The translations under genes and the position numbers were made by a program. From the NCBI RefSeq assembly GCF_053078305.1, contig NZ_CP166879.1: a stretch of DNA of 64,000 nucleotides; one strand, given 5' to 3'. Shown piece after piece: positions 58,858 through 64,000 of the stretch; positions within the stretch are counted from its first letter, which is position 1; each line of letters opens with the position of its first letter. Under the pieces are notes generated by a model that saw only the letters and a program-made list of their open reading frames with translations, was not told the origin of the DNA and did no database searches.

Positions 58858-58883
58858 GCCAGCCTTCGGGCTGGCGTTTTTTA
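58858..58883. terminator. Bidirectional terminator between eno (+) and the convergent TPM gene (-)
   Basis: GCCAGCC-TTCG-GGCTGGC followed by GTTTTTT and preceded by an A-run. Confidence 0.8.
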
Positions 58884-58891
58884 TGGTTGAG

Positions 58892-59785
58892 TTACCAGCG
58901 ACCGGACGCGCCGCCACCGCCAGAAGAACCGCCCCCGCCGCTAAATCCGCCGCCACTTGAGCCTCCACCGGAAGAGGATGAAGAAGAACTTTTTCTTGAA
59001 GCTCTTTCTTTACTGAGTTTTTTGTATTTGGCGCGTAGCTTTTTATTGACGATAAGCCAAAAAATAACCAGTGGTACGCTCGCAAAAGGCGTTAACATAC
59101 CGCAGGCAACGATTAAATTGGTCCATGGTCCTGGCTCGGCAACATAGAGGAATACCATCCCGTAAATGGCGCCAGTGAGAGTGATCCAGGGTAAATTCGA
59201 CGGATCGGTAAAAACAATAAAATATGAAAGTACCGCCAGCAATATAATTACAGCAAGCGATAATGGAATAGGGGGATTGATACTGTAATAATCCCCCTTG
59301 TCTTCCGATAATTCACCATTCAACAGAAGCGCGCCGATATTTTCGCTTGCCAGTGTTAATCCACCCATCAGGTCATCACTTTTGAAGGCAGGGATCAATA
59401 TATCCCTGATAATCTTCGCCGCTTGCAGGTCGGTAACCACCCCTTCCAGCCCGTAGCCAACCTCAATACGAACAGCATGATCCTCCCAGGCAACCAGAAG
59501 TAAAATACCATCGTTTCTCTGCTTATCTCCCAGTTTCCAGCTATCAAAAACGCGTGTTGCATATTGTTCAATGGAATCGTCTCCGGTGGACGGCACTACT
59601 AATACAGCGACCTGCGCCCGTGTTTTATGTGTAATATCCTGCAGTTGCTGTGTCAGTGATTGTTGTTCAGAAGTGCTTAACGTACCAGTAATATCGGTCA
59701 CCTGTTGGCGCAGCTCCGGCACAGCAATTTGCTGGGCAAGCCCAGGAAGGCACCACAAAGTGAATAGAATAAAGATTAAGCGCAT
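58892..59785 (-). CDS. TPM-domain membrane protein (YgcG-like), eno-proximal paralogue
   Basis: Signal peptide MRLIFILFTLWCLPGLAQQ, then TPM-like region (…ITGTLSTSEQQSLTQQLQ…AQVAVLVVPSTG…), hydrophobic segments, and C-terminal Gly/Ser tail ending SGRW; ATG at 59785 preferred over the TTG at 59797. Confidence 0.8.
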   Translation of the reverse strand: MRLIFILFTLWCLPGLAQQIAVPELRQQVTDITGTLSTSEQQSLTQQLQDITHKTRAQVAVLVVPSTGDDSIEQYATRVFDSWKLGDKQRNDGILLLVAWEDHAVRIEVGYGLEGVVTDLQAAKIIRDILIPAFKSDDLMGGLTLASENIGALLLNGELSEDKGDYYSINPPIPLSLAVIILLAVLSYFIVFTDPSNLPWITLTGAIYGMVFLYVAEPGPWTNLIVACGMLTPFASVPLVIFWLIVNKKLRAKYKKLSKERASRKSSSSSSSGGGSSGGGFSGGGGSSGGGGASGRW

Positions 59786-59790
59786 TACGA

Positions 59791-60939
59791 TCACCAACGG
59801 CCGGATGAACCGCCGCCTCCTGAAGAACCGCCACCACCGCGGAAAGAATTTCTCGACGAAGAGCGAGAATGAGCATTACGATTCCCCGTTTTCCTGTTGC
59901 TTTTTTCTCCTGACCCCAGCTTAAGATTGCCAGTAAATTTGGCCACAATGATCAGCAGAACGATGCCAGCAATGGTTATTGGGCCGATAAAATGATCAAT
60001 TAACCCAATAATTGTTGAGATGAATGCAATATCTTTATTACTGGCGAACACCAGGCACCATCCCACAATAATTATCAGCATCACGACAAACAATGAATTT
60101 CGTCCTGATTCACGAACCTGCGGAGTCTTCTTTTGTTTTTTCACTTTAGCGTTTTTATTTTTTGGGGCCAGCATCATAGGAAATACGCGGCACAAATTAA
60201 AAACTACCGCGAGACGCTGCTTGCAGGTTGTTGCTAACAATAAACTAAAACAAACGACCGATACCCGCCGAATGATGACATCGTCCTGAAAGGAGAAAAA
60301 CCAGACCATAGGGGTAATCATCGATATCATCCATATGCCACGCCGTGGGCGGCTGGCAAATCGCCAGAGGACAACGATGGCAACGATCATCAGCAGTGTC
60401 CAGGCAAGACATGGCAGCGAACGTTGCGGATTAGCAAACAGATGATTGGCTAAAGCATCCAAAGGGCTAAGGTTCGCTTTGATATGGGTAAACTGTGCGA
60501 TGCTTTCAATTCCGCCCGTTAATCCAGCAAAGAGATTGTTTTTTTCGAATTCTGGCTGCATATGGTAACGAACAATTTGCGCAGCTTGTTCCGGCGGCAA
60601 CATCTCTTCCAGTCCATGTCCAATCTTCATTGACGCCAGCCCTTCCGGCCATACGACGAGAATTAAGATACCTTCGCCATATCGCTTCTCTCCAACGGGT
60701 TTCCAGTGATATACCCCGTATCTCTGCGAGGCTGCAAGTTTAATGTTTTTGCCCCCTGTGGTCGGCGTAACCAACACGGCCACCTGGAAGTGGTTTTGCT
60801 GCTCGAGAGTCTGTAATTGTTGAGTTAAAGCAGTTTGTTCTTCTGTCGTTAATGTCCCGGTTAAGTCATTCACTGAAGGCAATCGTTCAGCGAATACCTG
60901 AAAACTGCATAGCATCAGAAGTAAGAGAAAAATACGCAT
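59791..60939 (-). CDS. TPM-domain membrane protein, divergent and longer middle paralogue
   Basis: Signal peptide, TPM-like N-terminal region (SVNDLTGTLTTEEQTALTQQLQ…), several hydrophobic helices, a Lys-rich segment (KNKNAKVKKQKK) and a Gly/Ser tail ending SGRW. Confidence 0.75.
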   Translation of the reverse strand: MRIFLLLLMLCSFQVFAERLPSVNDLTGTLTTEEQTALTQQLQTLEQQNHFQVAVLVTPTTGGKNIKLAASQRYGVYHWKPVGEKRYGEGILILVVWPEGLASMKIGHGLEEMLPPEQAAQIVRYHMQPEFEKNNLFAGLTGGIESIAQFTHIKANLSPLDALANHLFANPQRSLPCLAWTLLMIVAIVVLWRFASRPRRGIWMISMITPMVWFFSFQDDVIIRRVSVVCFSLLLATTCKQRLAVVFNLCRVFPMMLAPKNKNAKVKKQKKTPQVRESGRNSLFVVMLIIIVGWCLVFASNKDIAFISTIIGLIDHFIGPITIAGIVLLIIVAKFTGNLKLGSGEKSNRKTGNRNAHSRSSSRNSFRGGGGSSGGGGSSGRW

Positions 60940-60956: not shown

Positions 60957-61847
60957 CTAGCGCCCGGAAGCGCCACCGCCACCAGATGAACCGCCACCAC
61001 CGCTGAAATTGTCATTGTTGAATGAAGAGGATGACGATGATGAATAGTGGGAGGAAGAATTGCTTCTTGTATGGCGTGATGGCTGGTTGACATCACGCAT
61101 CAAATCCCGAACTTTTTTGCCGAAGGGAGTAACAGCGATGGCGACAGCCAGGAACGGTGTGGCGAAGCAGAGTAATGTTGCGAGTACTCCCCAGCTTCCG
61201 CTGAAGCCTGCTATAGGTAAAACAAAGGCCAGTACAATAGCTGCGAAGCAAATTACTCCCAGCGTTTTGATATATCCTCTGGCAGAAATAAACGTCAGTA
61301 CTATCGCCCAGACTAACAATGCCCACCAACCGCTAAAGGGCAAAGGGTGATCGGTCGGTGTAATCGTTGCTAAATTATTCCCCGTCAGACGACTTTCAAG
61401 ATCGCTGATCCCCTTTTGTAAACCGACAGCAAGGTCGCCTTTTTTAAATGCAGGAATAATATTGTTGCGAATAATTTTCCCGGACTGCGCATCCGTAATA
61501 ATACCTTCCAGTCCGTAACCGATTTCAATACGCACGGTATGATCCTGCCAGGCGACTAACAGTAGAACGCCATTATCGCGGTCTTTATCACCCGGTTTCC
61601 AGCTATCGAATACCCGCGTTGCGTACTGCTCGATGGTTTCATCGCCTGTTGTATCAACCACTAACACGACCAACTGTGCGTGGTTTTTTTGCGTCAGGGC
61701 TTTAATCTGGTTGGTCAGGGTGTTTACTTCGCTGTTTGTTAATGTGCCGGTTAAGTCATTCACATACTTGGGGGATTCAGGTACTGGAATTTGTGTGGCA
61801 AACACAGATGAACAGAAGAAAGCCATAAGGAAGATAAAATTTCGCAT
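60957..61847 (-). CDS. TPM-domain membrane protein (YgcG-like), LemA-proximal paralogue
   Basis: From the ATG at 61847 (MRNFIFLMAFFCSSVFA signal peptide), TPM-like region closely similar to the eno-proximal paralogue, hydrophobic segments and a Ser-rich/Gly-rich tail. Confidence 0.8.
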   Translation of the reverse strand: MRNFIFLMAFFCSSVFATQIPVPESPKYVNDLTGTLTNSEVNTLTNQIKALTQKNHAQLVVLVVDTTGDETIEQYATRVFDSWKPGDKDRDNGVLLLVAWQDHTVRIEIGYGLEGIITDAQSGKIIRNNIIPAFKKGDLAVGLQKGISDLESRLTGNNLATITPTDHPLPFSGWWALLVWAIVLTFISARGYIKTLGVICFAAIVLAFVLPIAGFSGSWGVLATLLCFATPFLAVAIAVTPFGKKVRDLMRDVNQPSRHTRSNSSSHYSSSSSSSFNNDNFSGGGGSSGGGGASGR

Positions 61848-61860
61848 AGAACTTCCCCGC

Positions 61861-62463
61861 TTAATGAGCATTAGCATTCTGGCTAAAATCTATTGTTGGG
61901 GCTTTACTTACTGCGGTGACATCATCCGGCAAATAATTTTTCTTTGGTGTGTAATCCATGACCTTTGCGGTTAATACAGCGGGGAATTTGCGGATAGTGA
62001 CATTATATTGTTCAATGGCTTTAATATATCTTCCTCGCGCAACGGCAATTCTATTTTCACTTCCTTCGAGCTGTACCATTAAGTTTTGATAGAGCTCTTG
62101 AGCCTTTAACTCAGGGTAACGCTCACTAATTATCGTTAACTGACCGAGAGTGCGAGTCACCTGCGCCTGGGCCTGTTGCCAGGCTTGTAATTTTTGTGCA
62201 TCTCCCGGAGCTTGCTGAAGATCGCTGCTGGCGCGATTAGCCTGGCTACGAGCCAATGTTACGGCTTCCAAAACGTCTTTTTCATGGCTGGAATAACCTT
62301 TAATACTGGCGACAAGATTAGGAATAAGATCGGCGCGACGTTGATATTGATTCAATACCTCAGACCAGGAGGCGTTAACCTGCTCATCATAGGTTTGAAT
62401 ATCGTTATATCCACAGCCTGATAAATTGAAAATAAATATAATTACGATGAATATTCTGAGCAT
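61861..62463 (-). CDS. LemA-family lipoprotein
   Basis: 200-aa ORF with lipobox (…IFNLSGC) and LemA-like sequence (…WSEVLNQYQRRADLIPNLV…); first gene of a four-gene minus-strand cluster. Confidence 0.8.
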   Translation of the reverse strand: MLRIFIVIIFIFNLSGCGYNDIQTYDEQVNASWSEVLNQYQRRADLIPNLVASIKGYSSHEKDVLEAVTLARSQANRASSDLQQAPGDAQKLQAWQQAQAQVTRTLGQLTIISERYPELKAQELYQNLMVQLEGSENRIAVARGRYIKAIEQYNVTIRKFPAVLTAKVMDYTPKKNYLPDDVTAVSKAPTIDFSQNANAH

Positions 62464-62635
62464 GTTTAAATCCCTTTTAATTAATTCCTTAAAACATAAT
62501 ACTCTGCTTCATTTTATTCTTTATGATCTAATCCACTTTTTGCCATAAACCTGCCTGTAACAGAATGTTAATAAGACATGATTGTTGTGGCAGGATCTGC
62601 AATAATTAACAATTATCCACTTCACAGAGAATGCT

Positions 62636-63307: not shown

Positions 63308-63645
63308 TTAAACATTTATAAGCGTTATAAATGGGTGGAACCTGTAAAGACTTCTACTCATTTATATTCTTTGTCGTCTCTGAAAAACCTCCATTTTGCC
63401 CATCCTGAACTAATCATTATCATTCTCTACAAATTCTGTGGCGTTAATTTTTCACTGGAGTGAAAATTATTGCGGTAAAGTTTGGTAGATTTTAGTTTGT
63501 ATAGAGTTATTTTAAATATTTACCTTTTTAATCAATGGGTTAAGTGCTCTTTAACATAATGGATGTGTTGTTTGTGTGATACTGTAAAGTTGGTAGATTG
63601 TGACTGGCTTAAAAAATCATTAATTAATAATAGGTTATGTTTAGA
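63308..63645 (+). promoter_or_regulatory. AT-rich CRISPR leader
   Basis: About 340 bp of AT-rich non-coding sequence immediately upstream of the first repeat; orientation matches the crRNA-sense repeat. Confidence 0.7.
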
Positions 63646-64000
63646 GAGTTCCCCGCGCTAGCGGGGATAAACCGTAATGAGTCAGGGGAATACCGAATAT
63701 TTTATAGAGTTCCCCGCGCTAGCGGGGATAAACCGAAATTTATCGAGATCGGCAGGGGTTACTGACAGAGTTCCCCGCGCTAGCGGGGATAAACCGGCCG
63801 TTAATCCGGACTGCCAGCGAATAACGCTGAGTTCCCCGCGCTAGCGGGGATAAACCGCAACATATTTAAACGATTTAAGCCAGGCATATGAGTTCCCCGC
63901 GCTAGCGGGGATAAACCGGGATTCATCACGCGGTTATCCGGGGGCCGTTAGAGTTCCCCGCGCTAGCGGGGATAAACCGGTGGTTGCGGGGTTATCGGTG
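63646..64000 (+). CRISPR. Type I-E-like CRISPR array; 6 repeats and 5 complete spacers in the window, array continues beyond the window end
   Basis: 29-nt repeat GAGTTCCCCGCGCTAGCGGGGATAAACCG at 63646, 63707, 63768, 63829, 63890 and 63951, with 32-nt spacers: TAATGAGTCAGGGGAATACCGAATATTTTATA / AAATTTATCGAGATCGGCAGGGGTTACTGACA / GCCGTTAATCCGGACTGCCAGCGAATAACGCT / CAACATATTTAAACGATTTAAGCCAGGCATAT / GGATTCATCACGCGGTTATCCGGGGGCCGTTA; a sixth spacer is cut by the window end. Confidence 0.95.

Follow-up and report, generated by a model that had tools for sequence, protein, structure and literature searches.

The DNA analysed here, referred to as the window, is a 64,000-nucleotide stretch of an Escherichia coli chromosome (contig NZ_CP166879.1 of assembly GCF_053078305.1), and this work concerns one gene in it, called mid, which encodes the middle one of three neighbouring paralogues with a TPM domain. 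In the window mazG, pyrG and eno lie on the plus strand; eno is followed by four closely spaced genes on the minus strand, then by queE and then by a CRISPR (clustered regularly interspaced short palindromic repeats) array. Read 5' to 3', the minus-strand genes between queE and eno are lemA–TPM1–mid–TPM3, mid being the third (Table 1). The gaps in lemA–TPM1–mid are 13 and 17 nucleotides, and the stop codon of mid either overlaps the GTG start of TPM3 (GTGA) or sits 5 nucleotides before the family-typical ATG start (MRL). These short gaps, the overlap or abutment of mid and TPM3 and the one hairpin after TPM3 indicate a single-operon layout. A scan for consensus sigma-70 promoters gave fewer sites than shuffled sequence and was uninformative.

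Table 1. Features of the lemA–TPM1–mid–TPM3 locus, with positions in the window.
Feature	Position	Strand	Remarks
lemA	61861..62463	-	200 aa, LemA-family; open reading frame; RefSeq name 'LemA family protein'
TPM1	60957..61847	-	ordinary YgcG-type protein: signal peptide, TPM domain, 3 membrane helices, Gly tail
mid	59791..60939	-	divergent paralogue, intact open reading frame, 382 aa
TPM3	58892..59794	-	ordinary YgcG-type protein; positional allele of K-12 ygcG
Terminator-like hairpin and T run	58858..58875	-	G+C-rich, directly 3' of TPM3; operon end
queE-lemA divergent intergenic region	62464..62635	.	presumed operon promoter; homologous to the region 5' of K-12 yqcG
mid residues 1-17, Sec-type signal peptide MRIFLLLLMLCSFQVFA	60889..60939	-	read from sequence; AAGGA ribosome-binding site upstream
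mid residues 23-149, degenerate TPM domain	60493..60873	-	Pfam PF04536, conserved-column count
mid residues 156-340, lineage-restricted membrane module, about 5 predicted transmembrane helices	59920..60474	-	motifs ALA(N/D)HL, LPC and (D/E)DVII conserved
mid residues 256-281, polybasic loop, predicted cytoplasmic	60097..60174	-	core KNKNAKVKKQKK at 60127-60162
mid residues 366-382, family-invariant C-terminus FRGGGGSSGGGGSSGRW	59794..59844	-	Gly columns 100% in 96 homologues

The sequence-only reading of this locus had described the middle paralogue as about 80 residues longer than its neighbours, with a less similar TPM region, extra hydrophobic helices, a strongly basic stretch and a Gly/Ser tail, and these descriptive points held up throughout. 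The neighbours have 306 and 301 amino acids (aa) as listed open reading frames (ORFs) and 296-297 aa when counted from the family-typical MRxF starts, thus the 382 aa of mid exceed them by 76-86 residues. The N-terminus of mid (MRIFLLLLMLCSFQVFA|E) is hydrophobic, aligns with the MRxF N-termini of the paralogues and, as read from the sequence, is a predicted export signal; it is conserved in all the orthologues, including those which have no TPM domain. The only significant Pfam domain of mid was TPM_phosphatase (PF04536, expect value E 2.6e-21, model positions 1-124 of 125), and the matches to PDB sequences were 7TBR (1.7e-11), 5ANP (9.8e-8, residues 20-149) and 2KW7 (3.3e-7). Among the curated NCBIfam models none was matched by mid at E <= 0.01, while the sole match of TPM1 and TPM3 was Psb32, with 31-36 bits against a cutoff of 160.

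The three paralogues were compared by BLASTP. The alignment of TPM1 with TPM3 (42% identity over 246 aa, 1e-60) extended into the membrane region, whereas the alignments of mid with TPM1 (36%, 198 aa, 6e-33) and with TPM3 (38%, 153 aa, 1e-29) were confined to the TPM domain. Within this domain TPM1 and TPM3 are 58% identical and mid is 41% identical to each of them; even the TPM domain of Pseudomonas aeruginosa is closer to TPM1 and TPM3 (50%) than mid is. In an alignment of 96 ordinary YgcG-type homologues, 56 columns of the TPM domain were conserved in at least 80% of the sequences. The mid protein deviates at 16 of these 56 columns, while the ordinary members deviate at a median of 3.5 (90th percentile 8.5). 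The changes include E67K, D99E, R103S, E105K, Y108H, G112E and D116P, and at position 116, where mid has Pro, Asp was found in 96 of the 96 homologues. The TPM fold of mid is therefore recognisable in the sequence but degenerate, and several polar residues that are invariant in the family are gone from it.

Downstream of the TPM domain the proteins differ in the membrane region. A crude hydropathy count gave 5 membrane segments in mid and 3 each in TPM1 and TPM3. Structure prediction with AlphaFold2 (AF2), for which a 9-sequence alignment of orthologues was the input, placed helices with low confidence at residues 171-194, 198-216, 221-255, 280-300, 304-317 and 322-335 (mean predicted local distance difference test score, pLDDT, 38.7), and the model served for helix boundaries only. 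The topology that we consider has five helices (a 174-192, b 201-217, c 226-255, e 282-300 and g 316-335) with the TPM domain outside and residues 218-225 predicted to face the periplasm; in five orthologues this arrangement would put 13-22 Lys and Arg residues on the cytoplasmic side, against 3-4 in the short loops of the periplasmic side. A seven-helix reading would put the polybasic loop into the periplasm, against the positive-inside rule. The stretch of the Klebsiella protein that matches residues 304-317 is charged, which favours five helices. The Lys-rich stretch KNKNAKVKKQKKTPQ (residues 260-274, window 60118-60162) gives this loop a net charge of +7 per 16-aa window, while the inter-helix loops of 93 ordinary homologues reach +5 at most; the loop is basic in all the mid orthologues and longer in Klebsiella. 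No strong phase-variation tract was seen in the DNA of the Lys loop, where the longest A run is 6.

The origin of this module was the next question to be weighed, as the sequence-only reading had suggested a fusion with another membrane module. According to such an explanation a foreign membrane module would have been put between the TPM domain and the YgcG tail. The BLASTP alignments of mid indeed break off where the TPM domain ends or at the first helix, and the comparison of the mid-type module with the ordinary YgcG module by hhalign gave a probability of 2.9% over 5 columns, that is, no detectable homology. However, no donor could be found: a profile of the module searched against 1.84 billion representative proteins gave 11 matches, 10 of them in the mid family (the Escherichia cluster, the Klebsiella-type cluster and frameshifted fragments of both) and one a spurious repeat protein, so the module was nowhere free-standing or fused otherwise. 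In a word-based search of 5.8 billion proteins, full-length relatives were confined to Escherichia (E. coli, E. albertii and others), and all the other proteins matched the TPM domain alone. Both flanks of the module are of the YgcG type and in family order (signal peptide and TPM domain on one side, basic/Ser-rich stretch and Gly tail on the other). A Smith-Waterman comparison of the last helices and tail of mid with the membrane part of TPM3 reached z 5.5, a value probably inflated by block composition, and BLASTP of the second half of mid against the same part gave E 3.2. Finally, the topology allows helices to be added in even number only, consistent with a two-helix expansion in place. 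We regard the fusion or replacement as very unlikely, some probability being left to it by the lack of similarity to the ordinary module; since the YgcG-type ends are in family order, the module is found nowhere else and an even helix number is required, divergence in place with an expansion by two helices and a loop is favoured over it. An internal duplication in mid of a unit of three helices plus basic stretch was considered and rejected, because the Smith-Waterman comparison of the two halves gave z 1.65 and 41 of 500 shuffles reached the score.

The distribution of the locus was examined in complete genomes and in related genera. The whole block was present at a coverage of at least 80% in 1102 of 5426 complete E. 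coli genomes, the carriers including O157:H7, O145, UTI89 and ATCC 25922, and the window type of TPM3 was present in 782 genomes. A cryptic Escherichia lineage carries the same four genes. In E. albertii lemA-TPM1-mid is followed directly by eno and TPM3 is absent; in Klebsiella spallanzanii and Klebsiella-type contigs lemA and TPM1 are followed by a mid-like gene, with TPM3 present or absent (absent in K. spallanzanii). In the E. coli strain C2, lemA-TPM1 is followed by the gene of a small 120-aa membrane protein. The mid gene thus follows lemA-TPM1 on the strand of lemA in every mid-carrying locus examined and TPM3 is optional. A constant position between two similar copies, about which the sequence-only reading had asked, was not borne out, since TPM3 is missing from E. 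albertii and K. spallanzanii and only a relic of the locus is left in K-12. The Klebsiella mid-like protein has 265-285 aa and shows an in-frame loss of the TPM core; what it retains are the signal peptide, the ALADHL helix next to the membrane, the module of five helices, a longer Lys-rich loop and the tail. Judged from these sequences, mid is an orthologous group of its own, present in Escherichia and a few Klebsiella only.

The small membrane protein mentioned above (120-129 aa, predicted) was seen in C2 (locus L002, 2589-2951) and in two Klebsiella-type contigs (L017, 6738-7127; L018, 1756-2145), the C2 and Klebsiella-type copies being 43% identical (7e-31). It replaces mid and TPM3 next to eno in C2 and follows TPM3 in the Klebsiella-type contigs. 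A further observation concerned TPM3 and ygcG, whose allelic classes are very divergent within E. coli. The window TPM3 (58892-59794) is 45% identical to K-12 YgcG and 61% identical to TPM3 of ATCC 25922, and the latter shares 77% identity with K-12 YgcG; the alleles have only their final 82 nucleotides, coding for the Gly tail, in common (91-99%, against L003 2593-3465 and L015 3123-3995).

It may be asked whether mid is simply an ordinary, redundant YgcG/TPM protein, whose extra length and basic loop are neutral and typical of the family and which has no distinct role. Both the length and the helix number vary among the 93 ordinary homologues, 12 of which have at least 370 aa and 15 of which have 4-6 hydrophobic segments, so an extended C-terminal part is in itself nothing exceptional, and membrane regions are known to diverge fast here, as the 45% identity of K-12 YgcG and the window TPM3 within one species illustrates. 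RefSeq also calls mid and its orthologues merely TPM-domain or 'YgcG family protein'. However, the protein stands apart in the conserved TPM columns, with 16 changes where the median is 3.5, its module cannot be aligned with the ordinary one, the charge of its loop is above that of all 93 homologues, the module is retained as a whole in both Escherichia and Klebsiella despite a synonymous divergence (dS) above 1.6, and the position in the operon is constant across the genera. This explanation therefore appears rather unlikely to us, although it deserves consideration.

In the window strain and its relatives the selection acting on the locus was estimated from the ratio of non-synonymous to synonymous substitution rates (dN/dS) by the method of Nei and Gojobori, and mid or its Klebsiella-type homologue was translated in eight loci (the window, ATCC 25922, EcPF40, Escherichia sp., E. 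albertii, K. spallanzanii and two Klebsiella-type contigs). The ORF was intact in all eight. At informative divergence the dN/dS of mid was 0.19-0.36, and that of the TPM-less Klebsiella form was 0.33-0.35; the values of the neighbours were 0.13-0.28 for TPM1, 0.15 for TPM3 and 0.04-0.11 for lemA. Consequently mid is the fastest-evolving protein of the operon, and it changes quickest in the membrane module and the loop. An explanation by decay, with selection on mid relaxed and the locus disappearing from E. coli, would agree with this highest ratio in the operon, with the absence of mid from about 80% of the complete E. coli genomes and the mere relic in K-12, and with the frameshifted fragments in public assemblies. 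The ratio rises to 0.64 in the least diverged pair, but this value comes from only 21 non-synonymous and 10 synonymous differences. Decay is very unlikely in view of the intact ORF in every complete locus examined in two genera, the low ratios at informative divergence and the conservation of the invariant tail and the membrane motifs. Thus mid is under purifying selection and is not a pseudogene, frameshifted or other. Truncated or frameshifted forms of mid were noted in public short-read assemblies (P0016, P0018, P0122, P0124 and P0125), some of them breaking in or just past the A-rich DNA of the Lys loop.

The sequence-only reading had also proposed sub-functionalisation within a tandem family. 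A specialised paralogue is indeed what the own orthologous group, the constant position, the purifying selection and the degenerate TPM domain point to; sub-functionalisation in the strict sense is not demonstrable.

The Gly/Ser tail of mid (SFRGGGGSSGGGGSSGRW) is the C-terminus of the YgcG family and has kept the pattern GGGGSSGGGGxSGRW. In the window it is encoded at 58892-58942 (TPM3), 59794-59844 (mid) and 60960-61007 (TPM1), and since the tail DNA of the three paralogues differs at synonymous sites, the motif appears to be held by selection and not by recent gene conversion. In the form F(R/S)GGGGSSGGGG(A/S)SGRW-COOH it was near-invariant from E. coli to Pseudomonas, Bordetella and Burkholderia. 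This C-terminal motif is too conserved for a plain low-complexity linker.

The corresponding region of K-12 was aligned at the DNA level. Window positions 62640-62546 are 100% identical to the K-12-type loci over 95 nucleotides, and positions 62545-62373 are 64.5% identical with a 1-nucleotide indel (L003, 3440-3762); after this homologous stretch the K-12 sequence runs directly into ygcG. The K-12 gene yqcG, which encodes 46 aa, corresponds by homology to the 5' part of lemA together with the region upstream of it, and RefSeq labels YqcG as a cell envelope stress response protein. This alignment suggests that K-12 yqcG-ygcG is what a deletion has left of the lemA-TPM1-mid-TPM3 operon. The homologous upstream region of K-12 is bound by sigma-S RNA polymerase, according to chromatin immunoprecipitation sequencing (ChIP-seq) and systematic evolution of ligands by exponential enrichment (SELEX) (PMC4447067, PMC5493296), and by phosphorylated PhoP (PMC4974570). 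A direct repeat resembling a PhoP box, TGTTACAGGCAGGTTTA, lies at 62546-62562 on the minus strand, at the boundary where the identity to K-12 falls from 100% to about 65%. The PhoP-box pattern has 17 matches in the window against 12.7 expected, which is not beyond chance, so the site is a lead only. Taken together, mid is a real and selectively maintained gene, and it occupies a conserved third place in an accessory envelope operon which K-12 has lost.

The product of lemA matched the MamQ model (2.3e-25, under the cutoff of the model) and carries a lipoprotein signal with the lipobox LSGC. The L(S/T)GC-GYN lipobox is kept in Klebsiella, in P. aeruginosa and in another Enterobacteriaceae genome, and from this conservation LemA is predicted to be periplasmic, on the same side as the TPM domains. 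We suggest that mid may be a non-catalytic membrane scaffold or adaptor subunit which would form a complex with LemA, a periplasmic lipoprotein, and with the ordinary YgcG paralogues. Its function would reside outside the TPM domain, in the membrane module together with the basic loop and the C-terminal motif common to the paralogues; the basic loop could bind to the anionic inner leaflet or to some partner in the cytoplasm, the C-terminus that is invariant among the YgcG paralogues would be cytoplasmic, and the complex would be active in an envelope-stress or stationary-phase response. The lipobox of LemA, the shared C-terminus, the binding of sigma-S polymerase and phosphorylated PhoP upstream, the label of YqcG and the literature on TPM domains together make this scaffold or adaptor role, in our inference, the most plausible one, and we hold it with middling confidence. 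TPM domains have been proposed to be chaperone-like assembly factors for membrane complexes and not phosphatases (PMC11237479; bioRxiv 10.1101/2025.01.14.632903), and structural work has found no consensus active site.

Comparison with known systems places mid closest to YgcG (E. coli K-12 b2778) and the proteobacterial YgcG family encoded next to lemA. They share the signal peptide, the periplasmic TPM domain, the membrane helices, the basic/Ser-rich stretch, the invariant C-terminal GGGGSSGGGG(A/S)SGRW and the place downstream of lemA. In contrast to this family, mid has the changed conserved columns, about 5 helices where enterobacterial members have 3, the unalignable module and the polybasic inter-helix loop; it occurs in Escherichia and Klebsiella only, and in the latter it can do without the TPM domain. 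By its position, K-12 YgcG is the allele of TPM3 and not of mid.

BA41 of Bizionia argentinensis (PDB 5ANP) resembles mid in its TPM domain, as given by the match above, and in its Gly-rich, low-complexity C-terminus. Reportedly, ATPase/ADPase activity of BA41 was described by Cerutti and colleagues in 2017, and its topology is said to comprise an extracytoplasmic TPM domain and a cytoplasmic tail. It is a single-pass protein, unlike mid with its approximately five helices and polybasic loop, and mid is without several residues conserved in the proteobacterial family. Psb32, TLP18.3 and LMTP1, which are lumenal and act in photosystem II repair or maturation, and Bacillus subtilis YdjH, the TPM partner of PspA, carry a TPM fold on that side of an energy-transducing membrane which faces away from the cytoplasm, as mid is predicted to do, and are proposed accessory or assembly factors for membrane complexes. 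They have other partners, no LemA partner and no Gly tail, and the Psb32 model, which weakly matches TPM1 and TPM3 far under the cutoff, has no match to mid. As a general concept, catalytically dead scaffold paralogues are also comparable: they stand beside canonical copies, have lost invariant polar residues and are kept under purifying selection. This analogy covers the loss of a conserved site and not the loss of an activity, as the enzymatic nature of canonical YgcG TPM domains is disputed; phosphatase or nucleotidase activity has been reported for some TPM members, and it is contested even for the canonical ones (PMC11237479; bioRxiv 10.1101/2025.01.14.632903).

Several points weigh against a non-catalytic scaffold. 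Most E. coli strains live without mid. In E. albertii and the cryptic Escherichia lineage the loop is less strongly charged (+5 or below). Within Escherichia the TPM domain of mid remains constrained, and its dN/dS there is 0.10-0.22 in the more diverged pairs and 0.58 in the least diverged one, thus it is not dispensable there. Since the AF2 model is poor, the helix count and the topology come from hydropathy and the positive-inside rule. The literature is unsettled as to which TPM residues matter, so the word 'non-catalytic' is itself inferential. A literature search on LemA together with TPM, on YgcG and on the O157 locus tags found no functional study, several apparent matches having used TPM for transcripts per million.

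Some observations on the neighbourhood should be added. In the window strain the TPM1 gene ends with ...ASGR-TAG-TAA (60957-60962), the TGG codon of the invariant terminal Trp having turned into a stop; in the strain PapRG-04-4, which is 99.2% identical, the gene is longer by one codon. The final Trp is absent from some mid proteins of E. albertii as well. RefSeq/PGAP flagged TPM1 as 'incomplete; missing C-terminus' in ATCC 25922 (L015, 5170-6093), EcPF40 (L014, 5164-6096) and C2 (L002, 2987-3922), which would make it a pseudogene in B2 strains; this was rejected when the ORFs were read, because they are intact at 307-311 aa with Gly tails. The flag seems to be an annotation artefact, for which the poly-Ser stretch may be responsible.

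The CRISPR array (63640-64000) is of a type I-E-like kind, with the repeat GAGTTCCCCGCGCTAGCGGGGATAAACCG, a 61-nucleotide period and at least 6 repeats; it continues past the end of the window, and an A+T-rich leader (G+C 0.35) lies in front of it. The K. spallanzanii locus differs in having a CRISPR array between the mid-like gene and eno. A link of the four genes to defence systems through the adjoining array was considered and rejected, since PADLOC matched none of the four proteins.

A bolder version of the scaffold proposal may be put forward, which on the present sequences we consider distinctly unlikely. The mid-type module, the polybasic loop and the Gly-rich C-terminus could be the active core of an unstudied accessory envelope-stress system, composed of LemA and the YgcG paralogues, which is present in pathogenic lineages, O157:H7 and extraintestinal pathogenic E. 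coli of group B2 among them, and deleted in K-12. The module might then sense or remodel the lipid leaflet of the inner membrane without TPM chemistry, and YqcG might be an expressed relic of the LemA signal peptide.

The impact of these results is modest, mid being accessory and taxonomically narrow. Nevertheless, LemA and the TPM/YgcG proteins are widespread and have no settled function, and the loss of most of the locus from K-12 may explain why the locus has been neglected. If K-12 yqcG-ygcG is the remnant of a four-gene operon, the reading of the small 'stress protein' YqcG is altered. A paralogue which keeps its membrane part and tail while the TPM domain degenerates, and is deleted in Klebsiella, points to the site where the function resides, and the TPM-less form represents a natural separation-of-function allele.

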